Source: Deltaproteobacteria bacterium
Lineage (GTDB): Bacteria > Desulfobacterota > Syntrophia > Syntrophales > JACQWR01
Reading direction: 5' to 3'
Assembly: GCA_026388415.1 (NCBI GenBank)
Contig: JAPLJV010000043.1
Coordinates: 8,478 to 72,477, forward strand
DNA length: 64,000 nucleotides
Part shown: piece after piece, positions 1,069-47,052 of the stretch
How positions within the stretch are numbered: position 1 is the stretch's first letter
Layout: every line of letters starts with the position of its first letter
Position numbers and translations under genes: made by a program
The notes under the pieces: generated by a model
Told to the model about the DNA's origin: nothing
The model's database searches: none
Seen by the model: only the letters and a program-made list of their open reading frames with translations

Positions 1069-1093
1069 AGGAAAAAAGCAGTGAGGTGAAAAC

Positions 1094-12096: not shown

Positions 12097-12116
12097 CTTA
12101 GCAGTACCAGAGTCAC

Positions 12117-12138: not shown

Positions 12139-12142
12139 AATG

Positions 12143-12173
12143 CCCTCAGAGACATCACCTCTGAGGGTTTTTT
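12143..12173 (+). terminator. rho-independent terminator downstream of tRNA-Glu (island-borne)
   Basis: CCCTCAGAG (12143-12151), 7-nt loop, CTCTGAGGG (12159-12167), then TTTTTT. Confidence 0.6.
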
Positions 12174-12349
12174 CATCCAACATTTGCCTTATTGAATTCG
12201 ATCACCTGAGCCGGCCCTTTGAGACCTTCCTCAAGTGCTCCCCTTGTTTCTTCCAACCCAAGACTACGGATATACCGTGCGGTCGTATTCGGATTTGCAT
12301 GCCGCATAATTGCCTGGATTATTGCCAGTGTGTACCCTTTTTTTATCTT
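12173..12349 (-). pseudogene. tyrosine recombinase/integrase C-terminal remnant
   Basis: Hand translation of the minus strand gives KIKKGYTLAIIQAIMRHANPNTTARYIRSLGLEETRGALEEGLKGPAQVIEFNKANVG*. It contains the LGH..xxT..Y catalytic-Tyr box, is bounded upstream by TAA, has no start codon, and the N-terminal two-thirds is absent. Confidence 0.75.
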
Positions 12350-12424
12350 TTACCTCATGAGGTATTATCCTTAGTCTCTTTTTTCTGTATAATACAAAGC
12401 ACGTTAAAGTTGATTTCGTACTAA

Positions 12425-13771: not shown

Positions 13772-13789
13772 GCACAAGGTGGATGAATA

Positions 13790-14482: not shown

Positions 14483-14884
14483 ATATCAACATGCAATCCT
14501 CAGTTTCCGATTGACGGGAATAATTACCGACTGGTCAACTATAATCTTCTCGTTGGATAATCAATGACAACAAATTCTACTTGTATAAGATGTAAACAAA
14601 AAACAAAACATACGGTAAGAAGCAGAGAGAGTCGGTTGCGCAGCTTCTGGTTATATCAGAAGAATACCATCCCAGACCTTCCTATACCTTCTGGAATAGG
14701 AGATCTCCTGAGCCCTATACAACGCGCGGGAAGGGATCAGAAAACAACCGACTCAGAAGCGGTTTGATAAAAATCAGCTGATAAAAATCAATGGACTTTT
14801 CCTGAATATTCAATGATAATCAGCTAAGAGTTGTAGTTTATTAAGATTGATTTTTATGATTTCTAATAAAAGGAGACTAGAATA

Positions 14885-15370
14885 ATGAAAAGTTTTAGAC
14901 GTATATCTCTGTTACTAATGACGGTGCTAATTATATCTATTACTGCCATTATCGCGGCCATACCTCTCTATGCCCAAACCCCAGAATTGATTGTCGTACT
15001 TAAGAACGGTACACGTCAGACCTTTCCCCTCTCGAATGTGTCGCGCATAGAAGTTTTGGGAATGGAGGCGACCAGCCGCATTAATCCAGCGGGAACCTGG
15101 CGCAGAGGTCAAGAAGGTACCACCTGGACGTTCACAGCGGGTGCTGATGGACGCTACTTCGCCCAAGAGAACGGGTTTGCTCAGGTCAACGGAATGGCTT
15201 ACTTTACGCCTTCTGGCAGCTTCCGTATCGACTATAGGTCAAGGGATGGTGTCTACACGGGGTATACCGAGATGAATTTTGCACCTGATGGTAAGACGGC
15301 TGCCGGAACTTGGAATAGCTATACGCCAGATAAAGCAACCAGTCAAGTCACTTGGACTCGCGTGAATTGA
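14885..15370 (+). CDS. secreted hypothetical protein
   Basis: AAAGGAG SD. Signal peptide MKSFRRISLLLMTVLIISITAIIAAIPLYAQ. No family recognised. Confidence 0.6.
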   Translation: MKSFRRISLLLMTVLIISITAIIAAIPLYAQTPELIVVLKNGTRQTFPLSNVSRIEVLGMEATSRINPAGTWRRGQEGTTWTFTAGADGRYFAQENGFAQVNGMAYFTPSGSFRIDYRSRDGVYTGYTEMNFAPDGKTAAGTWNSYTPDKATSQVTWTRVN

Positions 15371-15754
15371 GCCGTGGTCCTCAGATAACCTAAATTGAGA
15401 TCCATCTCTTGTATCAGCACGGTATTGTCGATATCGGTGGCTCCATTACCATTCATACATTTTCCTTTTTGGGTCGGAAATTTGCTTAACCCCAAAACGG
15501 AGAGAATCGCCGGAAACGGCGGTTATTTTCACAGGAGAAATGCTAAAATCGGGTTTTGGAAAGATTGACACCCGTATCGTTTGTCGGGTAAAAGGGATCG
15601 ATTACGGGAGCAACCTTCATTCGTTCTACCTGCATCTTGACACACTCCTTTCTTTCTCGTTTCCGATTATTCGGGTTACTCATCAACTGTTTAACGAAGT
15701 AGATTCCTTTTCTAATTTATTTTCGGTTATCTTCTGTGATCATGATCTTTTTTG

Positions 15755-15922
15755 TTATCGTTTTGCTTTAACTGAGAGATATGCCGTTCCAATCGGTTTA
15801 ACATCAACAAAACTATAAGAAGCTGGTTTGAAGGAGTTTTCTATCATTTTAGTTAAAGTCATCGTGAACATCCACATTATCATGGATATAAATATAAAAC
15901 CTATCACCGTGTATGTCTTCAT
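15755..15922 (-). CDS. possible 55-aa small membrane protein
   Basis: Hand-translated as MKTYTVIGFIFISMIMWMFTMTLTKMIENSFKPASYSFVDVKPIGTAYLSVKAKR*. Strong AGGTGAGG SD 4 nt upstream. Too short to appear in the supplied ORF track. Confidence 0.3.
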   Translation of the reverse strand: MKTYTVIGFIFISMIMWMFTMTLTKMIENSFKPASYSFVDVKPIGTAYLSVKAKR

Positions 15923-16301
15923 AATCCTCACCTATCGTAACTAAATATTCCGTAATACAGCATCGCTCCTTCTGACCCATCCCTTTTGGTTAGATGACCA
16001 ATATCACGATTAGTAATAGCAAAGGGTTGACCAATACCTGAAAGATAATCATATTTATTATTTATCTTTTGGTAACAGATATTTAGATTAATAATAGGGA
16101 CAGCAGAAAAGTATGAAATGGTTCGTTAGACCTCAATATTTGGTGGAACCTCAAGATATTGAGGGATGCTCTGCTGGGAGAAATACCGGTTCAGACCTTC
16201 TCAGCGGTGAGTGGGTAGGAGATCTTCTGTTGCAAATATAAAAGGGTAAGGTAGAGATAACAAACGGTTAAAAGCTTCAATCATAAGACATTCTATAATA
16301 C

Positions 16302-16907
16302 CTACAACCTGACCATATTCTTCTTGTTCTTCGTGTATTCTGCGATCACGCGCTTTGTATAGGTTGTGTTGGGATCTTTATCTTCAGCCATTAGCCTCTT
16401 TGCCTTATTATGGCCAACATTGTAAGCAAAGAGCGCTGTTGGAAGATCATTAAATAGATCTATCATTTTGGAAATGTAGTAAATGCCCATACGGATATTC
16501 ATTTGGGGGTCACAAAGATCCTTTAAACCGCGATAGGGAATTCCTATTTCCTTGGCAATTTCACTGGCCGTAGAGGGTTGTATCTGCATAAATCCTCTGG
16601 CGCCATCTGGTGATATCACATTCTGGCGATAGTTACTTTCTGTCTTCATAATAGCCAAGATGAGACGGTAATCTACGCCATAATGCAGAGATTCCTTTAT
16701 CACCGTCTGCACAGCAAGAATAATATTCCCATTGCTCATTTTTGCATCTTCTGCCTTTATGTTTTGAGCAATGTGCTGAACTGTTACCGAATTCGTATCA
16801 TCAGCGCCCCAACAGAGCGTGTCAGACAAAGAAAAAACAGTAAACAGCGGAAAAATTAAAACCAGAATAATGAAAAAAAATCTGGTAGAAACCCGGAAGC
16901 GTTTCAT
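16302..16907 (-). CDS. lytic transglycosylase (SLT domain)
   Basis: 201 aa. N-terminal TM/signal. ILAIMKTESNYRQNVISPDGARGFMQIQPSTA (catalytic ES motif), AYNVGHNK. Confidence 0.88.
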   Translation of the reverse strand: MKRFRVSTRFFFIILVLIFPLFTVFSLSDTLCWGADDTNSVTVQHIAQNIKAEDAKMSNGNIILAVQTVIKESLHYGVDYRLILAIMKTESNYRQNVISPDGARGFMQIQPSTASEIAKEIGIPYRGLKDLCDPQMNIRMGIYYISKMIDLFNDLPTALFAYNVGHNKAKRLMAEDKDPNTTYTKRVIAEYTKNKKNMVRL

Positions 16908-16929
16908 AGATTTAAATCCTCCTTTCTCT

Positions 16930-17033
16930 TAGGATTATGAATACTCATTCATGATACATATAGTGTTCATAATCCTATAGCCGTCTGAACAAAGTCTGAT
17001 TGATAGAGTTTAATGAAGGGGATTTCAGACGGA
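16930..17033. promoter_or_regulatory. two inverted repeats upstream of the SLT gene (candidate operators)
   Basis: TAGGATTATGAA (16930-16941) / TTCATAATCCTA (16966-16977), 12 bp perfect. CCGTCTGAA (16982-16990) / TTCAGACGG (17025-17033), 9 bp perfect. Confidence 0.35.
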
Positions 17034-17166
17034 CTCAACCCCATAAAGGCTGAGATTTAATGATGTGAAACTGCTTAGCGGAATGGTATATATACGAAGA
17101 AGATATCTATAGCAAGAAAAAAACGATCAGGTGGCCAATAAGATAGGTAAATCAAGTTATTAGCTG

Positions 17167-17784
17167 GTGATTATGTTATCGGGGAAACCATTTTTCACAA
17201 AAGAACGGATAAGATTTCTTTTTCGGAAGATTATCCTCCCATTGCTTTTGATCTATGCTGTCCTCGGGATTGCCGCAACAATACGCAATATGACCGTAAA
17301 AAATAATGAATATGCCGCGGTTCTTCTTTCCGACTATGCATTCTGGCAATATGATTATTGGGTATCTCCCTGCGCCTTTCTCGGGTCCTATATCTCTTGG
17401 TCGCACTACTTTAACAACAGAAACATGAAGGTAAAATGGTTTCTTAGTGCCAAGAGCAATGACTTTGAGGAAGTTATTAAAGACAAAAATTGTCAGAGTA
17501 TTGTGCTGGTTGGACATGGAGATATAGACAGCTGGCAAGCAACGGATATGGAAATTTCAAATTCAGCCGTTAGCACGATGATGAAAGATGTGCCCAAGAA
17601 GAGAGGTGAGTGGCTGCAGTTGAGCTGTGGAGGGGATAGCAAATATTTCATGAGAATGGGCGAATTGGTGATGGAAAACAAAAAGAATGTCCACACATAC
17701 TCTACCGCTGTAACCACCTATTATTTCATTTTTGATACCCTATCTGGCTTCAGATATCTTAAATCCTTGAACCGTCAGCCTTAA
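17167..17784 (+). CDS. hypothetical membrane-anchored protein
   Basis: 205 aa. TM helix IILPLLLIYAVLGIAATI. Soluble part has SIVLVGHGD and LQLSCGGD motifs. Start is GTG 17167 or ATG 17173. Confidence 0.55.
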   Translation: MIMLSGKPFFTKERIRFLFRKIILPLLLIYAVLGIAATIRNMTVKNNEYAAVLLSDYAFWQYDYWVSPCAFLGSYISWSHYFNNRNMKVKWFLSAKSNDFEEVIKDKNCQSIVLVGHGDIDSWQATDMEISNSAVSTMMKDVPKKRGEWLQLSCGGDSKYFMRMGELVMENKKNVHTYSTAVTTYYFIFDTLSGFRYLKSLNRQP

Positions 17785-18214
17785 AAATCCCTACCATGGT
17801 TAAAACTGCCGGAAAGGCGATTATTTCCGCAGGAGGAATGCTGAAATCCAGGTTTTGAAATATCGCAGGGCAGAACTAATTTTCAGAAGGTTTAAAACAG
17901 GTTCGCAGAAATACAGCGGATGACAAGAGATCGACTTCCTTTGCTGATGCCTCCAATCCAATATTGCAAGCAGCACATCCCAAGACATTCATACCAAACA
18001 GAATACTGAAATTTGCCTCTAATCCCTTTGTAGGAGTCCTGTTGTCAAATCCTATGGGACCATTATCCGAGTAGAGTGGAAACATAATTTATCCTTTTCA
18101 TCATTTTTCTGAGATACTTACCTTCCTTGGGTGGATTAAAGCTTATCGCTTGAGAAGTACTTACATTATCGGTTTATAGCAGCTGGAACTGAAGATCCTA
18201 AAACGCACCGAGGT

Positions 18215-18547
18215 ATGTTTATTGACATTTGTCGTTCATGTAGATATATAGAAGACGCAAAATATCAGTGGGGAACGCTAATGGATACCAGCCATGATAC
18301 CAAACTTAAAGGATATTGTCCCATGTTGGGTGGTCAGGTTCCCTTCCTATATTGCAGGAAATGTGGAAACAATCAACAACCCTGCTGGAAAGTATTTGAT
18401 TGTTGGTGGGAAACATTCGACATCGTGGAATTCATGCAGAAGAACTTGTCGGAAGACGATTTCCGTCAATTGCTAACATTCCAACCGAAAGCAAAGATCA
18501 CGACTCTCCTCGAACTGATTGAAAAAACGAAAGAGTCATCACTCTGA
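18215..18547 (+). CDS. Cys-rich hypothetical protein
   Basis: 110 aa. CPMLGGQVPFLYCRKCGNNQQPCWKVFDCWW cysteine cluster. Alternative start at 18281. Confidence 0.5.
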   Translation: MFIDICRSCRYIEDAKYQWGTLMDTSHDTKLKGYCPMLGGQVPFLYCRKCGNNQQPCWKVFDCWWETFDIVEFMQKNLSEDDFRQLLTFQPKAKITTLLELIEKTKESSL

Positions 18548-18608
18548 ACATCTATTTATAAGGGGAAGGGATCGGAAAACAAACAAATATGAAGTTATTT
18601 TTTTAATG

Positions 18609-19295
18609 TCACTTTTTGCCAGATATTTTTGGAAGAGCACTAATTGATTGTATTTTACAGCTACCCTCGCAGCCACAGGATAAACCTTGCGACTTTTCAA
18701 ATGCCTCTTTCCCTTCTCGGTACGAAAAATATGCTATGAGAAGAGCGCCCGCTGAATCGAATATGTTTAATCCGGTGATTTCATAACCGAGACTGGCGAT
18801 CAGAAGTACTATGGACAAATAGAGGCAAGCTTTTGAACAAGCCGCATCTGCAAGAATTGCCGATGAATTGAGTGCTTTACCAACCTTGGTCTTGTAGTGA
18901 ATCAGAAGCCACATAAAGGACATGGAAATCAGTGAAACAATGATTCCCCAAAACGTTGAATTTGGTTTGTGCTGCTCATACAATGATAATCCCGCTGAAA
19001 GAACAAGACCAAGTGTCAGCACATAAAAAGCCCAACCGGTTATTTTTAGTGCTTGCTGCTCAAAATTATCCTTGGTTTCCATTCCGTTTGCTTGTATCCT
19101 TCTGACCATGTGCCAGATCCCGATTCCGGATATTACTTCGACGAAAGAATCCACTCCGAAACCGAATAGTGACAAGGTTTCATCAGCAGCGCCAAGCCAT
19201 ACAGAAATAATCCCTTCGATGATATTGTAACCAATAGTGATGATGGCCAGTAAGTTGGCGATGTAATAAAGTCGTTTTAGTGATGTATCGGTCAT
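18609..19295 (-). CDS. cation-efflux (CDF)-like membrane protein, short form
   Basis: 228 aa, about 6 TM. IEGIISVWLGAADETLSLFGFGVDSFVEVISG resembles the TM1-2 region of CDF transporters. Cys-rich tail CGCEGSC. Confidence 0.65.
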   Translation of the reverse strand: MTDTSLKRLYYIANLLAIITIGYNIIEGIISVWLGAADETLSLFGFGVDSFVEVISGIGIWHMVRRIQANGMETKDNFEQQALKITGWAFYVLTLGLVLSAGLSLYEQHKPNSTFWGIIVSLISMSFMWLLIHYKTKVGKALNSSAILADAACSKACLYLSIVLLIASLGYEITGLNIFDSAGALLIAYFSYREGKEAFEKSQGLSCGCEGSCKIQSISALPKISGKK

Positions 19296-19347
19296 CTTAT
19301 AACCTTATAATTTGAAAGTTATCCATGGGGGTATTATGATCCAATTC

Positions 19348-19584
19348 TCATCTACAATCAATAACATTCCAACATGCCATACGTGCAGGCTTCGCAGTTA
19401 ATCCGGGTTCTTTGAATTTGTCCACTTGATACCCGGAATGAAAGCCACCATAATAAACCTTTGCTTCCATGTCCTTTGTGGGAACATTAATGACAAATTC
19501 TTTTTCGCTTTCGATCAGCTTACAGGAATATGCGCTTCTTCCAATGGCACAGGCGATGAGAGGCGGTTCCTTTGATACGGGCAT
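19348..19584 (-). pseudogene. flavin reductase-like domain fragment
   Basis: VSKEPPLIACAIGRSAYSCKLIESEKEFVINVP matches the core of the flavin reductase family, but both the N- and C-terminal parts are missing. The upstream in-frame sequence has no start codon. Confidence 0.5.
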
Positions 19585-19734
19585 GCAATGGTCTTCAGTT
19601 ATTTTGATCCAGAGGAACGGAAGGAAAGGCGCAGAACTGTTTCCCCAGAGGATTGCAGAAAAGCTTTTGAATTGGGTGCCCGGTTAGCAAAAGGTTAAAA
19701 CGAGAACCAATGAAAGTGGAAAGTATTAAACCCT

Positions 19735-19763
19735 TTGACAATTGTTAACACGCAGGTTAACAT
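19735..19763 (+). promoter_or_regulatory. candidate promoter/operator of the HigBA-like module
   Basis: TTGACA (19735-19740), 17 nt, TAACAT (19758-19763). The palindrome TGTTAAC-n6-GTTAACA lies within the spacer. Confidence 0.4.
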
Positions 19764-19769
19764 ATACCT

Positions 19770-20126
19770 ATGATTGGGACGGTTGTTTTCTATAAGACTG
19801 TGAGTGGAGAATGTCCGGTTCAGGACTTTCTCGATTCCCTATCCGGGAAGGTAGCGCAGAAAATAGCGTGGGTGCCCCAACTCCTGGAGGATTTGGAAAG
19901 AGTACCCTCTGTATTCTTCAAGAAACTGACTGGGACTGAAGAAATATGGGAGTGCCGGATTCAATATGGTTCAAATATTTACCGGATATTCTGTTTTTTT
20001 GACAGTCATTCCGTCGTTGTTTTGACTCACGGATTGGTAAAGAAAACGCAAAAAACACCACCACAGGAGATCGAAAGAGCAGAATCCTATAGAAGGGATT
20101 ATTTGACCAGGAGGAAAAAGTCATGA
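19770..20126 (+). CDS. RelE/HigB-type toxin (phage Gp49-like family)
   Basis: 118 aa. ...EIWECRIQYGSNIYRIFCFFDSHSVVVLTHGLVKKTQKTPPQEIERAE... is typical of the Gp49/DUF891 family. 4-nt overlap with the downstream HTH gene. Confidence 0.85.
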   Translation: MIGTVVFYKTVSGECPVQDFLDSLSGKVAQKIAWVPQLLEDLERVPSVFFKKLTGTEEIWECRIQYGSNIYRIFCFFDSHSVVVLTHGLVKKTQKTPPQEIERAESYRRDYLTRRKKS

Positions 20127-20398
20127 GTGACCTGAAAAAATATATTGCTGACAGAAATAAGACAGATAAGGAATTCTCCAATGGGTTTGATGAAGGATAC
20201 GAACAGTTCAAAATTGGGATAGTTCTCCGTCAGGCGAGAGAAACTGCAGGGTTGACCCAGGAGGAGCTCGCACTTCGTCTCAAGACGAAAAAAACGGCTA
20301 TTTCAAGAATTGAAAACCACGCGGAGGATATTAAGCTGTCAACTTTAGATCGGGTTGCGAAAGCACTGGGGAGACGATTAGAGGTCCATATCGCATAG
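20123..20398 (+). CDS. XRE-family HTH antitoxin (HigA-like)
   Basis: 91 aa. LRQARETAGLTQEELALRLKTKKTAISRIENHAEDIKLSTLDRVAKALG. Confidence 0.85.
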   Translation: MSDLKKYIADRNKTDKEFSNGFDEGYEQFKIGIVLRQARETAGLTQEELALRLKTKKTAISRIENHAEDIKLSTLDRVAKALGRRLEVHIA

Positions 20399-20423
20399 CA
20401 ATTTATACAACTTACGAATGGTA

Positions 20424-20499
20424 GGTGTGTCCCGGTGTGTCCTTTACCTCTGAAATGGGTGTAAAACGGTTGTACACGGTTACACTCGGGGACACACAA
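20424..20499. repeat. GGACACAC-type repeats near attR (candidate arm-type sites)
   Basis: GGTGTGTCCC (20424-20433) and GGTGTGTCC (20434-20442) in tandem. Inverted copy CGGGGACACACAA (20487-20499), in the same orientation as the attL-side CCGGACACAA repeats. Confidence 0.5.
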
Positions 20500-20557
20500 A
20501 CTTTAATGAAAGCGAATAGTTGTAATAAAACAGGCGACTTAGATATCTTTTAAATTC

Positions 20558-20606
20558 GCCTCTCACGCCGGTAGCAGGGGTTCAAATCCCCTTGGGACTA
20601 CCAATA
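20558..20606 (+). repeat. attR-type direct repeat (copy of the tRNA-Glu 3' part)
   Basis: Identical 49-mer to 12048-12096. Not preceded by the 5' half of a tRNA. Confidence 0.85.
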
Positions 20607-20614
20607 ATAAAAAC

Positions 20615-20647
20615 AGGGACATAGATAGAAATCTCGGTCCCTTTTTT
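20615..20647 (+). terminator. rho-independent terminator just outside attR (probable native tRNA-Glu terminator)
   Basis: AGGGAC (20615-20620), 16-nt loop, GTCCCT (20637-20642), then a T-run TTTTTT. Confidence 0.55.
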
Positions 20648-20801
20648 ATTGGCTGAAAATCAAATCCCAATCCTATTTCCAACCTTGGCAACTGAAATTT
20701 TGTCCATTGGATGTTATGCATCTTCAGAGAATATCAAGTAAACTGTTTTTACATTCAACCTGTTTTATGGTATGCTCGCAACATCAAATAAAGGAGATGT
20801 T

Positions 20802-38624: not shown

Positions 38625-40364
38625 GTGACGACTTTTGCAATTACCACGATAGAAGAGAGGAAAAAGATAGTGACGGGAATAACGGGTAAGCTTCTGATTC
38701 TGTTCATTATGCCGCTTTTCCTCTACGTAGGCCTCCTGCCCGTCATGCCGCTCATGGAGCCGGACGAAGGACGCTACAGCGCGATCCCCAGCTCCATGAA
38801 TAAATCCGGCGACTACATCACGCCCCGCCTGAAAGAAGCCGTCTATATAGAGAAGCCGCCCCTCGCTTACTGGGCAACCGCCCTGTCGTTTAAAATCTTT
38901 GGCGAAAATGAATTTTCTTCCCGGCTCTTTGCGGGTCTGTGCGCTTGGGGCTGCATTCTCATCGTCTATAGCATGGGGCGTTTCCTGCACGATGAAAAGA
39001 CCGGCCTCTATGGTGCGGCGGTATTAACGACCTCGCTATTTCACTTTGCCATCGGACGGATCAATATCCTGGATATGCCCGTGGCCTTTTTTCTGAGCCT
39101 GGCCATCTGGTCAGGTTACCGCTTTTGCGCGGCGGCCGGAAGGAAGGAGTGGCTCTATCTGTGCTATCTGGCAAGCGCCCTGGCCTTTCTCACCAAGGGA
39201 TTGATCGGCATTGTTTTCCCTGCGGCGATTATCGTCATCTGGCTCGTTTCCGTGGGCAGATGGCGCGATATTATCAAACTGATTTCATCCCTGGGGATTC
39301 TCATCTTTTTTACCGTTACTCTGCCCTGGCTTATTTTGATCCAACAGGCCCACAGCGATTTCTTCAGATTTTTTTTCGTGCAGGAGCATTTTCAGCGTTA
39401 TACCACGACGATTCATCACCGCAACCAACCGGTCTATTTTTTTCTGCCGATCATCGTTGCCGGAACGTTGCCTTGGTGCGCCTTCCTATATAAAGCTTTG
39501 CGTAAGAAAGAGACCTCCCCTGTCTGCGACGGCGGCGGGCAGATGAGCGTCTGGCATAAGTTCCCCTGGTTCCGCCGGGAAGACGCCCGGTATCTCCTGG
39601 TCTGGGCGGGTTTCATGTTCCTTTTCTTTTCCCTTTCCTCGTCCAAACTGATACCTTATATTGCCGCCGTCTTTCTGCCCCTGTCGTTGTTTCTGGGGAG
39701 CATCTTCCGCCTTTACGATGAGCAGAAAAAAGACTCCAACCTTCCCGCCCCCCTCAGCCGGTATGACTTGCCGATCATATTTCAGTCTTTGCTCTTCATC
39801 GCGGTATTGGCAGTTGCCCCGTTTATTGAAAAGCGCCCGCTGAATCTTTGGGTGCCCTTGATTGTTGTACCCGTCATCATGCAGATTTTGCTGGTTTTTA
39901 TGCCCGGTTTCGTGCGGCGCAGAACAGGCGCCCACTGGTTTCTGACGATTTATTTCTTGGCGGCGCTATTCCTGGGGGCATTGGTTTTTCCCCTTTCCCA
40001 GTTTTTGACCCCCTATAAGTCTGCCTATGTTCTGGTTCAGGCCATCAAGGACAACCTGCCCGCCGGTCAGGAACTCTATCAATATGATATGTGTCTTTAC
40101 GGCGTAGATTTTTATGGTAAAATCAGGACGCCAATTGTAGATGATATCGGCGAGGTGCGATATGGCAGCGAATTTTTGCCGGCCGCCGAAAAAAAGCATT
40201 ACTTCATGAATTCTGACGAGTTTTTCAAGCTTGTCGGACAGCGCCCGATAACGTACTGCGCCACCAAGGGTCAGGAACGGGTGGAAAGGCTCAGAAAAGT
40301 GGTTCCCAATCTTACGGTTATATGGGACAATAAGGAGTATTATCTGGTAAAACTGCAATCCTGA
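38625..40364 (+). CDS. arnT: ArnT-like GT39/PMT_2 family glycosyltransferase (L-Ara4N transferase-like)
   Basis: 579 aa, polytopic. EPDEGRYSAIPSSMNKSGDYITPRL...EKPPLAYW signature. GTG start assumed. Confidence 0.82.
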   Translation: MTTFAITTIEERKKIVTGITGKLLILFIMPLFLYVGLLPVMPLMEPDEGRYSAIPSSMNKSGDYITPRLKEAVYIEKPPLAYWATALSFKIFGENEFSSRLFAGLCAWGCILIVYSMGRFLHDEKTGLYGAAVLTTSLFHFAIGRINILDMPVAFFLSLAIWSGYRFCAAAGRKEWLYLCYLASALAFLTKGLIGIVFPAAIIVIWLVSVGRWRDIIKLISSLGILIFFTVTLPWLILIQQAHSDFFRFFFVQEHFQRYTTTIHHRNQPVYFFLPIIVAGTLPWCAFLYKALRKKETSPVCDGGGQMSVWHKFPWFRREDARYLLVWAGFMFLFFSLSSSKLIPYIAAVFLPLSLFLGSIFRLYDEQKKDSNLPAPLSRYDLPIIFQSLLFIAVLAVAPFIEKRPLNLWVPLIVVPVIMQILLVFMPGFVRRRTGAHWFLTIYFLAALFLGALVFPLSQFLTPYKSAYVLVQAIKDNLPAGQELYQYDMCLYGVDFYGKIRTPIVDDIGEVRYGSEFLPAAEKKHYFMNSDEFFKLVGQRPITYCATKGQERVERLRKVVPNLTVIWDNKEYYLVKLQS

Positions 40365-40366
40365 TC

Positions 40367-40387
40367 GCCCCGATTGAACCCTGCCCC
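40367..40387 (+). repeat. partial, permuted copy of the islet repeat core, abutting the arnT stop codon
   Basis: GCCCCGATTGAACCCTGCCCC. It contains the CCCCGATTG and GAACCC(t)G(c)CCC halves of the core GAACCCGTCCCCGATTG in swapped order. Confidence 0.4.
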
Positions 40388-40427
40388 ACCCGACTCACTG
40401 ATGAAGCGTTAATCGGGATAAAAATAT

Positions 40428-40456
40428 TTGCATAACATACGCCAGAAGGGTATGGT
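40428..40456 (+). promoter_or_regulatory. candidate sigma70 promoter for the orphan antitoxin gene
   Basis: TTGCAT (40428-40433), 17 nt, TATGGT (40451-40456). Confidence 0.3.
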
Positions 40457-40482
40457 ATGAAAGTAGTCGAAAGGTGGTAGCA

Positions 40483-40815
40483 ATGGCAAAGACAGAGCAA
40501 AAACCCAGACTGTCTAACGAACTGATGGAGGCTGCCGAAGACATCAACCAATGGCGTGAAGACAAGATCACACTGAAAACATACACTGTTGATCCGCAAC
40601 CTAAGATCGAGGTAACACCCGAGATCATCCGCGAGACACGGGAAAATCTGCATTTATCCAGGCCGGTATTCGCCCATGAACTGCATGTTTCACCCCGGAC
40701 ATTGGAGAAGTGGGAACAGGGACGAACCAAACCCAACGATCAAGCCGCCACGCTGATCATGCTCGTCCGCAAGTTTCCCGATACCCTCCGGCGCTTGAAA
40801 GAGTTGGCGGTTTGA
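40483..40815 (+). CDS. HTH (COG2944/YiaG-like) antitoxin-type regulator with no adjacent toxin
   Basis: ATG at 40483 follows GAAAGGTGG. IIRETRENLHLSRPVFAHELHVSPRTLEKWEQGRTKPNDQAATLIMLVRKFPD. Only about 110 bp of non-coding DNA lies upstream. Confidence 0.8.
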   Translation: MAKTEQKPRLSNELMEAAEDINQWREDKITLKTYTVDPQPKIEVTPEIIRETRENLHLSRPVFAHELHVSPRTLEKWEQGRTKPNDQAATLIMLVRKFPDTLRRLKELAV

Positions 40816-40823
40816 CCATGCAC

Positions 40824-40881
40824 GCGATATTCCGGGGCGGGAAATATAGTTGCCATCAATCATAATTTGAATCCGTCCCCG
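40824..40881 (+). repeat. islet intergenic repeat, copy A (58 bp)
   Basis: gcgatattccggggcgggaaatatagttgccatcaatcataatttgaatccgtccccg. Aligns by hand to copy B with 8 substitutions and a 1-nt indel. Confidence 0.7.
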
Positions 40882-40930
40882 GTTCAAGGCGTGGGAATTA
40901 TTGGACAGATAGGAATTAAGGGGTGACAGG

Positions 40931-41155
40931 ATGGAAACCATAAAATTTGAAACGGATATTGACTCTCAAGGAGGCATTCATCTTCCGGAGGAGTTTCGCC
41001 ATGCCTACGGTAAGCATGCCCGGCTGGTTTTGTCGTTGCCGGCACTTGAGTTAACACGGAAAAAAGGACGGCAACCCGGAAGCGCCAGAGGAATACTCAA
41101 GGTACTTTCCGAAGATGACGAACACCTGAATGATTTCAAGGAATACATGCCATGA
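40931..41155 (+). CDS. vapB: VapB-type antitoxin (AbrB/SpoVT-like N-terminus)
   Basis: 74 aa. ...GGIHLPEEFRHAYG... 4-nt overlap with the PIN toxin gene. Confidence 0.7.
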   Translation: METIKFETDIDSQGGIHLPEEFRHAYGKHARLVLSLPALELTRKKGRQPGSARGILKVLSEDDEHLNDFKEYMP

Positions 41156-41538
41156 AACTCTTACTGGACACGCAGGCCATTCTCTGGTTTCTTCTCGACG
41201 ATCATCGTTTGAGCGGCAGAGCGAGGGAGAATATTTCGGGTCCCGATGCCTTGATTTTTGTCAGTCCCGCCAGCCTTTGGGAGATCGCCATCAAGATCAG
41301 CCTTGGTAAGTATGAGCTCCCTGCGCCTTTCGAGGCATTCTGGGATGAACAATTTATTACCAACGACTTTGCGCTTTTGCCCGTGTCAGTGTCACATGCC
41401 GCACAGGTTGTCAATTTACCCTTCCATCATCGCGATCCATTCGACCGTTTGATCATTGCCCAGTCGCTCGTTGAAGGGATGCCGCTCGTAAGCAGTGACA
41501 TCATATTTGATCGTTATGGCGTCGAACGGGTTTGGTGA
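41152..41538 (+). CDS. vapC: PIN-domain toxin VapC
   Basis: 128 aa. LLLDTQAILWFL (first acidic residue), ASLWEIAIK, HRDPFDRLIIAQS. Confidence 0.9.
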   Translation: MKLLLDTQAILWFLLDDHRLSGRARENISGPDALIFVSPASLWEIAIKISLGKYELPAPFEAFWDEQFITNDFALLPVSVSHAAQVVNLPFHHRDPFDRLIIAQSLVEGMPLVSSDIIFDRYGVERVW

Positions 41539-41673
41539 AAGATGCTGTGAGGATGAAAACGGGGAGCAATGTCGTCAGTTAATGATTTGCATCAGATAGT
41601 TAACCTCTGCCGGAGCTCCGGCAGAGATTTGGGATGGTGGAGTAAAGAACCATGAAACACAAATTATTGCTTG

Positions 41674-41700
41674 AATAAAATGTGAACCCGTCCCCGATTG
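41674..41700 (+). repeat. islet intergenic repeat, copy C (right half only)
   Basis: aataaaatgtgaacccgtccccgattg. Shares the core (A)ATGT(G/A)AACCCGTCCCCGAT with copies A and B. Confidence 0.5.
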
Positions 41701-41875
41701 TTCTCTGGATGCTGCAACGACGCAAGCTGAATTCGGCTTGGCAGAGATGGCGGCCAATAAATTAGCAACCCGGAAACTGACCAACTGGCCTTGGATTAGT
41801 GCCATCTTGAAAACGTAATGGAATTAGTAAGGTCCCAAGATTAGTGCATTTTGTAGATAAAGAGGTGCAAGAGCC

Positions 41876-42094
41876 ATGAGTAATTCAAGTATTGCCGAAT
41901 ATGTAAAATTGAGCGTTCCTGAACGGATTCAACTTGTTGAAGATATTTGGGACAGCATCGCCGCGATACCGGAAGAGATGCCGCTCACGGAGGCGCAGCA
42001 GGCAGAATTGGATCGGCGTCTTAACGCCTATCGTTTAAATCCCGAAGAAGGATCTCCGTGGGAATACGTGCGAGAGGCCATCCGTCGCTCATGA
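41876..42094 (+). CDS. addiction-module antitoxin (TIGR02574-like)
   Basis: 72 aa. ERIQLVEDIWDSIAAIPEEMPLTEAQQAELDRRLNAYRLNPEEGSPWEYV. Confidence 0.8.
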   Translation: MSNSSIAEYVKLSVPERIQLVEDIWDSIAAIPEEMPLTEAQQAELDRRLNAYRLNPEEGSPWEYVREAIRRS

Positions 42095-42387
42095 AACGCA
42101 TGATATTCATCCGCCCCGAAGCGGAACAAGACATGCGTGATGCCTATGGCTGGTATGAAACACAAATGCCGGGCCTAGGAGCTAATTTTCTCCTGCATGT
42201 TGACGCTCAGTTGAGATCGCTCCAGAGGAACCCGTCACAATATCCGATCGTTCACCGAGAAGTTAGGCGTTGCCTGGTCCGTCGTTTTCCTTATGGCATT
42301 TTCTATATGGTTGAAGATAAACGGATTGTTGTTCTGGCTGTATTCCATGCCAAACGCAACCCCAAATCATGGCAGGCAAGGTCATGA
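42091..42387 (+). CDS. ParE/RelE-family toxin
   Basis: ATG at 42091 overlaps the antitoxin stop (ATGA). MKRMIFIRPEAEQDMRDAYGWYE...RRFPYGIFYMVEDKRIVVLAVFHAKRNP. Confidence 0.85.
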   Translation: MKRMIFIRPEAEQDMRDAYGWYETQMPGLGANFLLHVDAQLRSLQRNPSQYPIVHREVRRCLVRRFPYGIFYMVEDKRIVVLAVFHAKRNPKSWQARS

Positions 42388-42552
42388 ACAGAATCCGGTC
42401 AAGAGCAAAGGTAATTACCTTTTTATCCCAACGAGTTTTTTGCAGCTATCAGGCTACCGGCTCAGACAAGAAGCAGAATAGTCAAGAAAGCCGCGTGATT
42501 AATCTGGGAAGTGTCCCTGGTTTTTTTGGTATGGTGTCCCGGGATTTCCCAG

Positions 42553-42611
42553 GCGATATCCCGGGGCTGGAATGAATAGGTGCCATCAATCATAATGTAA
42601 ACCCGTCCCCG
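42553..42611 (+). repeat. islet intergenic repeat, copy B (59 bp)
   Basis: gcgatatcccggggctggaatgaataggtgccatcaatcataatgtaaacccgtccccg. Confidence 0.7.
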
Positions 42612-42636
42612 ATAGAGTCAAAAGAATAAGGATTTT

Positions 42637-43719
42637 ATGACCCTTCCAAAGCATCTTTACCATTATACATCCCAGAAAGGTATTCTCGGTATTCTGGAAA
42701 GTAATAAATTGTGGATGACCAACATCCTTTATCTGAATGATTCAAGTGAATTTACATATACCTTAGAATTGGTAAGATCAAAATTGAAGAAACTGAAAGA
42801 ACAAAAACAAAACATAGGGATACTTACACCGAATGATGTAAAATATGAACAGGTTGAGAGGGTATTGGATGGATTTTTCAATGATAAAAGGACTGAAAGT
42901 TATGTATTTTCACTTTCAAATTCAAAAAAAAAGGATGACGACCTAAATCAATGGAGAGGGTATTGTCCAAGAGAAGGTGGGTTCTGTATTGAATTTGATT
43001 CTGGGAGATTGTTCTCCATAATAGAGAAAATGAATAAAATGAGTAAAGGGAAGTATGAAATAAGTGAATGTATATATCATCATAAAGATGAACCAATAGA
43101 ATCAGTGGAATCGTTGATACGTAAAATAACAGAAGCCGACTTTTATAAAGAATTAGTAGAAATTTCTTCATACATAAAAGATAACTCCTTTGAAGATGAA
43201 AAGGAATACCGTATAATATATCAAGGGGTTCCTAACGAAATAAATTTTCGCGGAGGAATTTCAATGATAATACCTTATATTGAATTACCTCATATCCAAT
43301 TTTCACCTGTAGATGATGTTCTGCCTATCACAACTAAAGAAAAAAATGACAGATGGATTTACTATGGAAAAACAATGTCAGGTGATTTTTATTATAACAA
43401 TAGTTCTATTGTAAATGTAAGTCCCCAGATTTCCAAGGTATGGTTCAAGATAAAACTTTCAAAGTTAGAAAAAGATAACACTCTTCAACAATTCAGAAAA
43501 TTTGGACAATCAATGGATTATTGGGAAAAATTAGATAACCAGATAATGTTATATGAATTGGATTGTGTCAATAAAACGGGAAAAACTCTAAAGTTGGTAT
43601 ATTATGATATTAAGGGAAAAACATTGCTCAATCACGACTATTCAGACCCCACGACAGATCAAATAATACCTGGGTCAATGAATGATATATTACTCAATAA
43701 AGTTTGTCCGAATAAGTAA
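42637..43719 (+). CDS. DUF2971-like protein fused to a C-terminal adhesin-E-like domain (AT-rich gene)
   Basis: 360 aa. LYHYTSQKGILGILESNKLWMTNILYLNDSSEF, YVFSLS...LNQWRGYCPREGGFCIEFD and EKEYRIIY match my recollection of DUF2971. C-terminal roughly 130 aa: W.YYG...VWFKI...LYELDC...LVYYDIKGK...IIPGS...NKVC. Confidence 0.72.
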   Translation: MTLPKHLYHYTSQKGILGILESNKLWMTNILYLNDSSEFTYTLELVRSKLKKLKEQKQNIGILTPNDVKYEQVERVLDGFFNDKRTESYVFSLSNSKKKDDDLNQWRGYCPREGGFCIEFDSGRLFSIIEKMNKMSKGKYEISECIYHHKDEPIESVESLIRKITEADFYKELVEISSYIKDNSFEDEKEYRIIYQGVPNEINFRGGISMIIPYIELPHIQFSPVDDVLPITTKEKNDRWIYYGKTMSGDFYYNNSSIVNVSPQISKVWFKIKLSKLEKDNTLQQFRKFGQSMDYWEKLDNQIMLYELDCVNKTGKTLKLVYYDIKGKTLLNHDYSDPTTDQIIPGSMNDILLNKVCPNK

Positions 43720-43814
43720 GTTATAAAAAAGTGACGAAACGAGAAAAACCAAGAGTAAATCAGGGGGACACCTTACTAGTTTTTCTGTAAAATAAGAAAG
43801 GCACCCATTAAAGT

Positions 43815-43838
43815 CAATCGGTGACGGGTTCAGATATT
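43815..43838 (-). repeat. islet repeat core, copy D (inverted orientation)
   Basis: Reverse complement aatatctgaacccgtcaccgattg matches copy C aaaatgtgaacccgtccccgattg at 21/24 positions (by hand). Confidence 0.4.
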
Positions 43839-44050
43839 GGTGGATGGAACGGGTCAGGCTGATTCGAAAATGCCGGCGTGACCTGCGGGCGCTGGCAGCG
43901 AGGATTAACAGTGGGGGTATTCCGGTGCCATAATACGGCTTTATCACAAGAAAATTTTTCCCGGTTCAATCCGCTAGATTGAATTATTACAGTAATAGTG
44001 AGGTGCAGTCTTATATATCGAACCAACAGGAACTGAACGAGGAGTTTAAC

Positions 44051-44383
44051 ATGGGCACCATGAAACTGACAGATAATGAAAAAAAGTCCTTAGATGCGCT
44101 GCACAAGGTTTTATTTGAGAGATATCCGGTCGTTGACTTCCGTCTTTTCGGCTCAAAGGCAAGGGGTGAAGGCGTAGATGATTCCGATATGGACGTCATG
44201 ATTGAAATTCCTGAATATGATCCGGTCATGGTTGCCGAGATAGACGATCTCATCTACCGGTTCAACCTGGAATACGATGTTTTTATTTCAGCGCTTTTTT
44301 TCGGCAAGAATGAACTGGAAGAAGGCCCGTTGTCCGAAGCGCCGATCTATAAAGCGATTCAGCGCGAAGGGGTTCCGCTATGA
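44051..44383 (+). CDS. MNT-type nucleotidyltransferase antitoxin (type VII TA)
   Basis: ATG at 44051 lies 7 nt after GAGGAG. FRLFGSKARGEGVDDSDMDVMIEI is the minimal NTase motif. 4-nt overlap with the HEPN gene. Confidence 0.85.
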   Translation: MGTMKLTDNEKKSLDALHKVLFERYPVVDFRLFGSKARGEGVDDSDMDVMIEIPEYDPVMVAEIDDLIYRFNLEYDVFISALFFGKNELEEGPLSEAPIYKAIQREGVPL

Positions 44384-44790
44384 GTATAGACGAGAAGAAG
44401 AAGTCCCTCGCCGAGCACAGGTTGATTCAAGCCGCGGAAAGTCTGGAAGAAGCCCGCTATCTTATTGAAGGTGGCAAGAGCCTTCGTTCCGTTGCGAACC
44501 GGATTTACTATGGCATGTTCTACGCGGTCTTAGCCCTCCTCATTTATGAGCCTTTTTCGTCCTCAAAACATACCGGTGTTATTGCCTATTTCAATAAGAA
44601 TTTCGTAAAACAAGGTATCATCCCGGAAGCATTGGGACGTTGCCTAAACAAGGCATTCGATTTGAGGCAGCGCGGTGATTACCGGGAATATTTTGAACTG
44701 ACTAAAGACCAGGTGGAACCGCTTCTTGATGTGGCAGAAGAATTTATTACCGCCATCAGGACGTATTTGCATGAAGGTGGCAAAATCTGA
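44380..44790 (+). CDS. HEPN-domain toxin
   Basis: 136 aa. ...SVANRIYYGMFYAVLALL...AFDLRQRGDY (Rx4-6H-like region). Confidence 0.82.
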   Translation: MSIDEKKKSLAEHRLIQAAESLEEARYLIEGGKSLRSVANRIYYGMFYAVLALLIYEPFSSSKHTGVIAYFNKNFVKQGIIPEALGRCLNKAFDLRQRGDYREYFELTKDQVEPLLDVAEEFITAIRTYLHEGGKI

Positions 44791-44810
44791 CTAATGGGGA
44801 TATTGCACAG

Positions 44811-44939
44811 AGACATAACACCGAGCGTGGCGTATTCGGTGGGCTGATTGGCAGGGGGCAAGGGATTCATTGGGATGATATAGACGAGGACATCAGCATA
44901 GAAGGGCTATTAGCAGGAAAACAATCTGGGGAAAGCTAA
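44811..44939 (+). pseudogene. DUF2442-like C-terminal remnant
   Basis: Hand translation ...ERGVFGGLIGRGQGIHWDDIDEDISIEGLLAGKQSGES* resembles the conserved C-terminus (..NWRLIG.G.GIHWPDLDEDISV..LLAG..SGES) as I recall it. No start codon, and the N-terminal half is absent. Confidence 0.4.
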
Positions 44940-44977
44940 GCATCATATAAAAAATGGCTTGAAGTAAGAGGCAACAA

Positions 44978-46123
44978 ATGAATATCCGTGAAGATTTTTT
45001 ACCATTGAGCAGGCCGGCGATCGGGGAGGAAGAAATCAGACAGGTGGTCGCCTGTCTGAAGTCCGGCTGGATCACCACCGGCCCTCTCTGTCAGAAATTT
45101 GAGGCGCAGTTTTGCGAACTTACGGGCGCCGGTCAGGCGGTTTCCGTCACTTCCGGGACCGCCGGCATGCATTTAGTGCTGCTGGCGCTCGGTATCGGGC
45201 CGGGGGACGAAATAATCACTCCTTCGATGACCTTTGCCTCCACCATCAATATGATTGTTATGCTGGGCGCGAAACCGGTTTTCGTTGACATTGATTACGA
45301 AACTCTCAACATTAATGCGGACCTCATCGAAGCAAAGATTACCGGCAATACAAAGGCCATTATCCCGGTTCATTTCGCCGGTGCGCCGGCCGATATGGAC
45401 AAGATTCTGGATATAGCCGGCAGGCACGGACTTACGGTCATTGAAGACGCCGCCCACGCCGTGGGAACCTGGTATAAGGGCATTCATGCGGGCGGGTTCG
45501 GGCAGATCGCGATTTTTTCCTTTCATCCGATCAAGAATATTACGACGGGTGAAGGCGGGATGATTGTCCATAACGACGGCAAAATGGAGCAGCAGCTTCG
45601 GCAGCTCAGATTTCACGGTTTGGAACGGGATGCCTGGAAACGCTACGGCAAAGGCGGCAACCCGGAATACGATATTCAGACCCCCGGCTTCAAATATAAC
45701 CTCACGGACATGCAAGCGGCCCTTGGGCTGGCCCAGTTGTCGCGACTCGAGGAATTGAACAAGCGCCGGGCTCATCTTGCCAAACTCTATATGGAGAGTC
45801 TCAAGGGTCTGAAGCGAATCGACCTTCCGGGTGTACCCGGTTATCGTCATATCCATTCCTGGCACCTTTTTATCATCAAGTTGCTCGATATGGACAGGAG
45901 GATTTTCATGGAAAAACTGTCGGAATATAATGTAGGGTATGGTCTCCATTTCCCGGCCAATCACCTGCTTGCCTACGTGCAGGAGCGCTTCACGATCCCT
46001 GCCGGATCTCTACCCGAGACGGAGCGGGCGGCGGCGGGCATCATTTCCCTGCCGCTCTTTCCGGACATGGCGGATGCCGACGTCCATTATGTGGGCGAGG
46101 CCATAAGGGAGATAATGAAATGA
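44978..46123 (+). CDS. arnB: UDP-4-amino-4-deoxy-L-arabinose--oxoglutarate aminotransferase (DegT/DnrJ/EryC1 family)
   Basis: 381 aa. FLPLSRPAIGEEEI..., ...SFHPIKNITTGEGGMI (PLP Lys). Context with arnC/A/D. Confidence 0.92.
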   Translation: MNIREDFLPLSRPAIGEEEIRQVVACLKSGWITTGPLCQKFEAQFCELTGAGQAVSVTSGTAGMHLVLLALGIGPGDEIITPSMTFASTINMIVMLGAKPVFVDIDYETLNINADLIEAKITGNTKAIIPVHFAGAPADMDKILDIAGRHGLTVIEDAAHAVGTWYKGIHAGGFGQIAIFSFHPIKNITTGEGGMIVHNDGKMEQQLRQLRFHGLERDAWKRYGKGGNPEYDIQTPGFKYNLTDMQAALGLAQLSRLEELNKRRAHLAKLYMESLKGLKRIDLPGVPGYRHIHSWHLFIIKLLDMDRRIFMEKLSEYNVGYGLHFPANHLLAYVQERFTIPAGSLPETERAAAGIISLPLFPDMADADVHYVGEAIREIMK

Positions 46124-47052
46124 TTTCTTTGGTTATTCCTGTTTATAATGAAGAAAAGAACATCAAGACGCTCATGAAGCGGCTCACACCCATTATGCAG
46201 GGAATAGGCTCTCCCTATGAGATTATCCTGGTTGATGACGGCAGCTCCGATGGTTCGCTTGCCCTTTTGCGGAAGTTTGCCGACCGCCCGGAGGTCAGGG
46301 TGGTGGAGCTGACCAGAAACTATGGGCAGCACGCGGCCATCATGGCCGGTTTTTCTCTCGTCAAGGGAGAAATTGTTATCACCCTCGATGCAGACCTGCA
46401 GAATCCGCCCGAAGAGATACCCCGGCTGGTCGCCAAAATGACGGAGGGGAACTTTGATGTAGTAGGCACCATCAGGAGGGGGCGCAAGGATTCTCTTTTC
46501 CGGATACTCCCGTCCAAGGTCGTCAATATGATTACCCGCAGGATTACGGGCGTGAAACTGAGGGACTGGGGCTGTATGTTGCGGGCCTACCGCCGTCCTG
46601 TAGTCGAACGTATGATTTCCTGTCACGAGCACGCGACTTTTATCCCCGCTCTGGCCACCTATTTCGGGAAGCGGGTCACAGAGATAGAAGTAGCCCACGA
46701 GGAAAGATACGGTGGAAAATCAAACTATCCCTTGCGAAAATTGATCAACCTGCAGTTCGATCTGGTAGCCTCTTTTTCCGATTTCCCCTTGAAATTGCTC
46801 CTGTATGGCGGCGTCGGCATGGCCTTGCTGGGGACTGTTTTCGGTCTGGTTCTGGCCGTGGCCCGCCTGTCCTATGGTGCGGCCTGGGCGGCGGAAGGCG
46901 TTTTTACCTTGTTTGCTATCCTCTTTCTATTCGTGGGCATGCAATTTTTTGCCCTCGGGCTGATCGGGGAGTATATTGGCCGCATCTACCGGGAAGTGCG
47001 CAAGCGACCCGAATATGTTATTGAACAAATTTATTCTTCTGATAAATTATGA
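46120..47052 (+). CDS. arnC: undecaprenyl-phosphate 4-deoxy-4-formamido-L-arabinose transferase (GT2)
   Basis: 310 aa. SLVIPVYNEEKNI, ILVDDGSSDGS, TLDADLQNPPEEI, C-terminal TM pair. Confidence 0.92.
   Translation: MISLVIPVYNEEKNIKTLMKRLTPIMQGIGSPYEIILVDDGSSDGSLALLRKFADRPEVRVVELTRNYGQHAAIMAGFSLVKGEIVITLDADLQNPPEEIPRLVAKMTEGNFDVVGTIRRGRKDSLFRILPSKVVNMITRRITGVKLRDWGCMLRAYRRPVVERMISCHEHATFIPALATYFGKRVTEIEVAHEERYGGKSNYPLRKLINLQFDLVASFSDFPLKLLLYGGVGMALLGTVFGLVLAVARLSYGAAWAAEGVFTLFAILFLFVGMQFFALGLIGEYIGRIYREVRKRPEYVIEQIYSSDKL

Follow-up and report, generated by a model that had tools for sequence, protein, structure and literature searches.

Islet at the arnT|arnB junction

The stretch of DNA analyzed here (64,000 nucleotides, or 64 kb, from a Deltaproteobacteria bacterium, GCA_026388415.1, contig JAPLJV010000043.1; hereafter the window) carries an operon for 4-amino-4-deoxy-L-arabinose (L-Ara4N) that is split between arnT and arnB, two genes of lipid A modification. 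The junction (40365-44977) is occupied by an islet of about 4.6 kb with toxin–antitoxin (TA) and candidate anti-phage genes, all on the plus strand. Our comparisons support the reading of this islet as a real, fast-changing insertion hotspot of the ordinary kind, namely a TA/defence hotspot flanked by core genes. It is slightly unusual, as the hotspot lies within an operon and its inserts are strictly co-oriented. We put the probability that this is an accessory islet with fast turnover by recombination, at a core-gene-flanked hotspot in the arn operon, at roughly 70%.

The left core flank is an arnT-like GT39/PMT_2 glycosyltransferase gene (38625-40364, plus strand; Pfam PMT_2, E 1e-25). On the right, arnB (44978-46123) is followed by arnC, a formyltransferase gene, a decarboxylase/epimerase gene and arnD, all on the plus strand and extending to 49891, and each neighbor in this series overlaps the next or nearly does so. 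The right-flank assignments come from the listing of open reading frames (ORFs), from Pfam for arnB and, on the identical contig L001, from precomputed Pfam annotation. An earlier note on this DNA had described the same plus-strand genes between arnT and an otherwise contiguous set of arn genes, and the ORF listing and family searches agree with it on both points. The islet is part of a neighborhood of about 28 kb (22.5-50.2 kb) in which every gene is on the plus strand. Strong deviation of GC content is confined to 42.6-43.8 kb (0.30-0.34 vs about 0.50) and the genes for a minimal nucleotidyltransferase (MNT) and a HEPN protein are mildly reduced (0.44-0.46). No tRNA was found at the site, nor were att-like flanking direct repeats found at the islet edges.

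Empty and differently filled junctions in relatives

The relatives compared are uncultured Syntrophales, with ArnT homologues graded from 93% identity downwards; among species representatives, Smithella and Syntrophus are nearest (ArnB 67-69%). In Syntrophales, ArnT homologues that are 45-93% identical adjoin arnB-like genes. The junction is empty in four to five relatives (ArnT 45-80%), where the two genes overlap or lie 2-22 nt apart. In Smithella (L008, ArnT 45%), arnT and arnB overlap by 4 nt; in L085, L086 and L087 (ArnT 70%) the gap is 2 nt; and the P0008 contig (ArnT 79%) has a 22-nt gap within full synteny (T2SS-TPM-LemA-arnT-arnBCA-D; T2SS, type II secretion system). On the P0005 contigs (ArnT 80%), arnT is abutted by the next gene, which we counted as adjacent. 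Direct abutment of arnT and arnB is the ancestral state. The earlier suggestion that the two genes were once neighbors is thus supported, as they are adjacent wherever the site is empty. Spacing in the relatives revealed neither unlinked arnT and arnB loci nor vertical conservation of one islet across a broad clade.

Other relatives carry different content between the same flanks. The P0001 contig (ArnT 93%) has a 5.7-kb islet, all on the plus strand, with DUF433, Unstab_antitox, a 99-aa ORF, a NucS_C-like 295-aa gene and a 448-aa gene, and it has few or no families in common with the islet of the window. In L077/L043 (ArnT 82%), the islet is 8.0 kb long and contains about 14 genes, all on the plus strand. 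Its first part consists of Unstab_antitox and a ParE gene with a premature stop, a PF06296 RelE gene with an MqsA-like helix-turn-helix (HTH) gene, and another Unstab_antitox gene. These are followed by VapB/PIN, a tetratricopeptide repeat (TPR) protein, a uracil-DNA glycosylase (UDG)-superfamily protein, a second PIN gene and two DUF2442 genes before arnB. The L084 contig (ArnT 83%) stops 34 nt past arnT. The first sequence after arnT exists in three different versions in the three occupied lineages. The same conserved pair of flanking genes is therefore empty in some relatives and otherwise filled in others, as in a hotspot.

In a metagenome-assembled genome of Syntrophus aciditrophicus (L007, 6860-10000), the interval from arnT to arnB measures 3.1 kb and contains a DUF3313 gene and, on the opposite strand, an ABC-F ATPase gene. 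Given its distance (45% ArnT) and its non-TA arrangement, this genome was set aside as an informant on the hotspot.

Exchange, reordering and decay of modules

The window and L077 have two TA modules in common, along with the DUF2442 gene next to arnB, and the order of these along the islet differs. DNA identity to L077 is 94.3% over the VapBC block (40905-41541), 91.4% over the Unstab-ParE block (41833-42387; L077/L043) and 93.5% over the DUF2442 tail block (44842-44933), compared with 80.2% over the arnT flank (39829-40362) and 85.1% over the flank from arnB onwards (44948-46500). As the shared modules are more alike than the flanks and are reordered, they were exchanged after the lineages split.

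Part of the islet also has a second genomic context. The block 41862-44331 (about 2.5 kb, comprising Unstab-ParE, a repeat doublet, DUF2971, an Adhesin_E-like gene, a single repeat and MNT) recurs at 99.5-100% identity in L088 (coordinates 1-555 then 556-3236). There it lies 3' of a housekeeping gene that, from its sequence, we take to be larB-like. The contig L093, with 99.2% identity, has a 392-nt ORF6N-like relic where the window has what is left of the 3' end of an IS630-type DDE transposase gene. This insertion sequence (IS) relic spans about 117 nt of the window (41705-41820, plus strand) and, at 91.8% identity, matches the final part of a 229-aa ORF in L073, presumably IS630/DDE_3-like, a label that comes from recognition of the ORF sequence and not from a family search. 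The switch between the two relics is at 41704/5, the outer end of the repeat called R2 below. Modules decay in place by deletion, and near-identical strains differ in small segments. The stepwise acquisition of cassettes at a hotspot proposed in the earlier note holds insofar as gain, shuffling and decay are seen, but the modules are cassettes in a loose sense only, with no attC-like sites.

Independent Logan assemblies (L001-L006, L089-L092) end at the same two points, about 41795 in the IS630 relic and about 44325-44339 in the MNT gene. This suggests assembly-graph branches caused by repeats or by alternative neighbors in populations.

Could the islet instead be the decayed remnant of one larger mobile element (a transposon, integrative and mobilizable element or prophage) that inserted once and eroded lineage by lineage? 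The IS630 relic in the window, the phage-type ORF6N-like relic in L093 and the foreign AT-rich block would be in keeping with such an origin, and the DUF2442 gene shared beside arnB hints at a single old insertion that founded the islet. However, there is no integrase, att-like edge repeat or tRNA at the site, and erosion alone cannot yield reordered modules whose identity exceeds that of the flanks. That few or no families are shared with the relative of 93% ArnT identity also speaks against it, and we regard a single eroded element as very unlikely.

Repeats between the modules

A repeat with the core AAYCCGTCCCCG occurs in four copies between the modules and in none in the other approximately 59 kb of the window. 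The inter-module repeats are repetitive extragenic palindromic (REP) elements and their inverted doublets (REPINs), belonging to a REP-associated tyrosine transposase (RAYT), and not cassette recombination sites. The earlier note had seen repeat elements between the modules. R1 (40824-40882) is a short inverted REP doublet, GGGGCGGG...CCGTCCCC, and R3 (42552-42613) is an inverted doublet of the R1 subtype; strand does not apply to either. The canonical copy is R2, TAAAATGTGAACCCGTCCCCGATT (41676-41699, plus strand), and R4 is a singlet in inverted orientation (43814-43838, minus strand). A truncated REP right end of 13 nt, tcgCCCCGATTGA (40365-40377, plus strand), abuts the arnT stop codon; this is a short match read by eye.

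The exact 21-mer TAAARTGTGAACCCGYCCCCG was found at 40 metagenome loci with unrelated flanks. The metagenome copies are singlets or inverted doublets (minus then plus, at least eight of the latter), with spacers of 13-210 nt and no target duplication. In L044, a REP directly follows the stop codon of a Y1-transposase ORF. P0221 (231 aa, PF01797), a full-length homologue 96% identical to the L044 ORF, scores 81.5 bits against NF047646, the NCBIfam model for RAYT, for which the cut-off is 80 bits; on no single contig was an intact gene seen with REPs on either side. L064, L073 and L069 contain 3' relics of RAYT genes, each between inverted REP copies. No RAYT was found within the 64-kb window by tblastn.

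The genes beside this repeat family are of mixed kinds. Accessory ORFs at L044-L083 (39 metagenome loci) include PIN (three), ParE (two), MqsA-HTH (two) and Bro-N (four), together with DUF4143/AAA_14, SLFN/AlbA_2, Fic and type ISP restriction-modification genes; housekeeping ORFs include LpxK, DnaJ and an AI-2E transporter. These are counts without a background rate for enrichment.

We considered R3 and R4 as transposon ends around the DUF2971 block and rejected this, as they face outward relative to the ends of REP/RAYT elements and there is no target duplication. A Tn3-type or pdif/Xer-site reading of the repeat (GGGG ends, ATCATAAT) was dropped after the link to RAYT emerged. A second palindromic repeat family is present in L043 (11113-11160 and 11907-11955; also in L077), with ccgctcatggtgagcYtgtcgaaccatga followed by a GGTTCA...TGAACC hairpin with compensatory changes. 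One copy of it lengthens the arnT reading frame by nine codons in a relative.

The REP/REPIN copies might themselves be the joints of the islet, with the Y1 transposase or REP-REP recombination moving or deleting the modules between them. Here, as in L077, L043 and L066, most modules have REPs between them, and 3 of about 10 mapped breakpoints fall within or at the end of a REP (40365 at the arnT junction, 40841 in R1, where the HTH block has its right end, and the L093 switch at 41704/5). REPs make up about 5-7% of the islet, giving a rough binomial p of about 0.03 for the breakpoint excess, although this count is confounded since REP insertion itself makes apparent breakpoints. Y1 transposases act on single strands and could bias orientation. 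Most breakpoints, however, are away from REPs (40905, 41541, 41833, 41862 and 42387), the DUF2971 block is outside and not inside the inverted pair R3(+)/R4(-), and the same REP family also occurs beside ordinary genes. RAYTs are not known to mobilize anything other than REPINs. We consider shuffling driven by REP/RAYT unlikely. A bolder version, in which the junction would be an integrase-less and attC-less cassette platform whose modules are captured, reordered and deleted via REP/REPIN copies by RAYT or by REP-REP recombination, is a long shot. If true, a REP-based platform would be a new, non-integron route to ordered gene-cassette arrays and the first cellular role of RAYT/REP beyond the spread of REPINs.

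Test of an integron origin

The islet resembles sedentary chromosomal integron arrays and attC clusters that have no integron-integrase (CALINs) in its one-directional, small and mostly promoter-poor modules, many of them TA modules, in a module order that differs among relatives and in one variable flank-side end (PMC4889954; PMC13108822). If it were such an integrase-less array, the modules would be promoter-less cassettes acquired through attC x attI recombination; this would account for their co-orientation and polarity. The imperfect palindromes between modules would also fit, as would the sequence beside arnT that differs while the distal DUF2442 is shared, and chromosomal integrons typically carry TA/defence cassettes (PMC13108822; bioRxiv 10.1101/2024.07.02.601686). 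By the published definition, an integron or CALIN has at least two attC sites within 4 kb, each an imperfect palindrome with R''/R' boxes bearing AAC/GTT triplets, and a cassette is an ORF with its own 3' attC that moves along with it (PMC4889954). A complete integron also needs an integrase nearby, which a CALIN lacks.

A strict pattern scan for RYYYAAC...GTTRRRY pairs at the attC spacing of 45-145 nt found none in the 64-kb window or in L077, and a relaxed scan found no AAC/GTT R-box pairs with a complementary inner arm. Nothing relevant to attC was returned by an Rfam scan at E<=10. The blocks shared with L077 end 3 nt (VapBC) and 0 nt (Unstab-ParE) after the stop codon and the spacers downstream are unrelated, so no 3' recombination site travels with the gene. 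The palindromes are of the REP/RAYT family, which at unrelated loci also flanks housekeeping genes and a RAYT gene. The islet genes of the window and of L077 and the genes on the P0001 contig include no integrase (IntI) or intact transposase gene; for the rest of the window, integrases were looked for by eye only, among the starts of ORFs. The absence of an integrase and of a transposase reported earlier is correct for integrases and intact transposases in the islet, but the IS630-type relic had been overlooked. With no attC-like site in the pattern scans, no integrase in the islets and shared modules that end at their stop codons, we rejected the integron/CALIN reading, which is highly improbable.

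TA modules and relics

The first gene of the islet encodes an orphan HTH antitoxin resembling the MqsA C-terminus (40483-40815, alternative start 40474, plus strand; Pfam HTH_3 8.5e-6, MqsA_antitoxin 7e-4). It matches TIGR03830 with E 2e-9, under the family cut-off. This antitoxin had been noted as lacking a toxin, and it does; what is left of a PF06296 RelE-type toxin gene is its start fused to its stop (40457-40480, plus strand), with the rest deleted, as seen by comparison with L066 and L077/L043. Upstream of the homologous antitoxin, the toxin has its full 119 aa in L077/L043 and 23 codons in L066. The HTH module is 95.8% identical in DNA to that of L066, where the genomic context differs and a full REP precedes the module.

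Next are a VapB-like antitoxin gene (40931-41155) and a PIN toxin gene (41152-41538; PIN E 4e-16), both on the plus strand with a 4-nt overlap. The two have the predicted VapBC architecture, a PIN toxin gene preceded by a 74-aa ORF, with a weak DUF2281/TA_VapB C-terminal match. A perfect 14-bp hairpin (41602-41629, plus strand; inverted repeat I18), found by sequence folding 3' of vapC, is a possible terminator. It is followed by a 34-nt relic of a two-gene module junction (41638-41671, plus strand), which matches at 94% the point in L066 where the 79-aa ORF stops and the 73-aa ORF starts.

A second predicted pair, of the PF09720/TIGR02574-ParE architecture, consists of a TIGR02574/Unstab_antitox antitoxin gene (41876-42094) and a ParE toxin gene (42091-42387), both on the plus strand (Pfam E 2e-19 and 9e-12). 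The antitoxin scores 91 bits against a TIGR02574 cut-off of 32, and its gene overlaps the ParE_toxin gene by 4 nt. A promoter/terminator scan, which is unspecific in AT-rich DNA, placed a terminator-like site after parE (hairpin 42504-42520 plus a T-run).

The last pair comprises MNT (44051-44383; NTP_transf_2 2e-6) and HEPN (44380-44790; 1.5e-17) genes on the plus strand. For a type VII-like TA system, we looked for a minimal nucleotidyltransferase with GSX10DXD beside a HEPN protein with Rx4-6H. The two domains are adjacent and the GSX10DXD motif is visible in the MNT protein; no clear Rx4-6H motif was identified in the HEPN protein, and the MNT match to the MntA equivalog is far under the cut-off. 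A comparison with PADLOC, which the earlier note had recommended, yielded PDC-S09 for the MNT protein (1e-13) and PDC-S31 for the DUF2971 protein.

Beside arnB, a DUF2442 gene is 5'-truncated and start-less, as described before, with about 26-48 C-terminal codons left (44793-44940, plus strand; Pfam E 3e-8, covering positions 46-71 of the 72-position profile). Its tail is 93.5% identical to an intact 111-aa gene in L077 at the same arnB-proximal position.

A DUF2971 gene fused to its neighbor

The AT-rich gene of the islet is a fusion ORF of 360 aa (42637-43719, plus strand; GC 0.31), with a DUF2971 domain resembling an ADP-ribosyltransferase (ART; residues 1-232) in frame with an Adhesin_E-like domain. 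Its matches are PF11185 (1e-11), PF16747 (4e-8) and PADLOC PDC-S31 (3e-7). Twelve Logan contigs are 100% identical to 41795-44339 apart from 210 nt that are missing in the window at 43333/43334 and correspond to L089 1540-1749. These undeleted contigs encode the DUF2971 protein (272 aa) and the Adhesin_E-like protein (153 aa) in two distinct genes. The 210-nt deletion creates the in-frame fusion and costs DUF2971 its last 40 residues and the second protein its N-terminus. The DUF2971-like gene named in the earlier note is this fusion of two genes. The loss could be a true strain variant or an assembly error. Exact look-ups of the 360-aa fusion ORF and of ArnT (GTG start) gave no match; the collection does not contain the fusion, since the form present in other samples is the undeleted one with two genes. 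The 153-aa Adhesin_E-like protein is possibly a lipoprotein.

The DUF2971 family is ART-like and related to DarT/AbiGi (PMC12522546), and Aristaios, a DUF2971 protein from lactococcal plasmids, was experimentally shown to be a single-gene anti-phage system (PMC11381338). By analogy, the intact DUF2971 protein may be an ART-type abortive-infection toxin.

Observations elsewhere in the window

Outside the islet, a Gp49/HigB-like toxin gene (PF05973, E 2e-19) is followed by an XRE-type HTH antitoxin gene (19770-20398). A stretch at about 12100-20800 has a GC content of 0.38-0.48 (0.50-0.60 around it), contains small unassigned ORFs and begins right after a tRNA-Glu (12019-12093); it may be a tRNA-linked island. 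At the window edge, a 231-aa ORF (121-816, minus strand) with a GC content of 0.32 is compositionally foreign, like the DUF2971 block. Within arnT, Rfam gave a match to a C/D-box sR10-like RNA (39752-39803, minus strand; E 0.004), which at 25.4 bits is below the gathering score of 45 and was treated as chance.

Discussion

We propose that a lineage-specific accessory-gene islet with fast turnover opened the arnT|arnB junction of an otherwise contiguous L-Ara4N (arn) operon in one uncultured Syntrophales clade. The islet comprises type II TA modules (VapBC, TIGR02574-ParE and an orphaned MqsA-like antitoxin), MNT-HEPN and a foreign AT-rich block with genes for a candidate anti-phage DUF2971 protein and a small Adhesin_E-like protein. 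Modules would arrive or be swapped via homologous exchange through the arnT and arnB flanks and via illegitimate or short-repeat joints, probably with no dedicated site-specific recombinase. Co-orientation would come from selection for transcription along the arn operon and its 28-kb plus-strand neighborhood and not from the insertion mechanism. TA modules may aid the persistence of the islet, some modules may provide phage defence of the abortive-infection type, and the spacers have been colonized by REP/REPIN elements and IS debris.

Several points weigh against this proposal. Recombination is deduced from end-states alone, with no insertion event or mechanism observed. The approximately 29 co-oriented genes in three independent islets would also be expected from a strand-specific insertion mechanism. 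New content seems to gather next to arnT, and the DUF2442 gene near arnB is shared, a polarity that recalls attI-proximal insertion in integrons. The terminator-like hairpins at 41602-41629 and 42504-42520 make simple read-through from arnT to arnB uncertain. The P0001, P0008 and P0002/P0005 contigs, of which P0001 and P0008 are key, were compared via gene tables and not DNA, and the comparison contigs are mostly short metagenome fragments of unknown strain relationships.

The junction provides a documented intra-operon accessory hotspot in uncultured syntrophic Desulfobacterota, represented by alleles that are empty, filled in different ways or decaying. New TA and anti-phage genes can be mined at such sites, for example the DUF2971 ART-like gene with its Adhesin_E-like partner and several unassigned genes of the relatives. 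The site also prompts the question of how an operon for envelope modification can remain expressed although 5-8 kb of selfish modules interrupt it. As a marker for these genomes, the REP/RAYT family newly defined here is useful. Current concepts are unchanged unless REP-mediated shuffling proves true.

Comparison with known systems

Unlike sedentary chromosomal integron arrays and CALINs, the islet lacks attC-like sites, IntI and a 3' site on the shared modules, and its palindromes belong to the REP/RAYT family.

Systems of REP/REPIN elements with a RAYT (Y1/HUH) were reportedly described by Bertels and Rainey in 2011, Nunvar in 2010 and Ton-Hoang in 2012. The family found here shares with such systems a repeat of about 24 nt, inverted doublets that form hairpins, the occurrence of both singlets and doublets, an intergenic location, the absence of target duplication and a repeat that flanks a 231-aa Y1 transposase passing the NCBIfam RAYT cut-off (PMC5581495). 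It differs in its host group (uncultured Syntrophales and relatives), in the concentration of copies in an accessory islet and in several mini-elements with a RAYT 3' relic between REPs.

The intact DUF2971 allele is like Aristaios/PDC-S31 in its DUF2971/ART-like domain and as a stand-alone gene of about 270-316 aa. The relationship is distant, however, and in the window allele the last 40 residues are replaced by the Adhesin_E-like domain.

Hotspots of horizontal gene transfer flanked by core genes were reportedly described by Oliveira et al. in 2017. Core defense hotspots in Pseudomonas aeruginosa (PMC10250203) are an example of the closest known parallel. As there, the site is fixed between conserved genes and empty in some relatives, its content varies from one close relative to another, with many TA and defence genes, and no integrase is needed at the site. 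In contrast to those hotspots, the arnT|arnB site is inside an operon whose flanking genes overlap or nearly touch when it is empty, all inserts are co-oriented with the operon, and the islet, at only 4.6-8 kb, consists mainly of two-gene TA modules.

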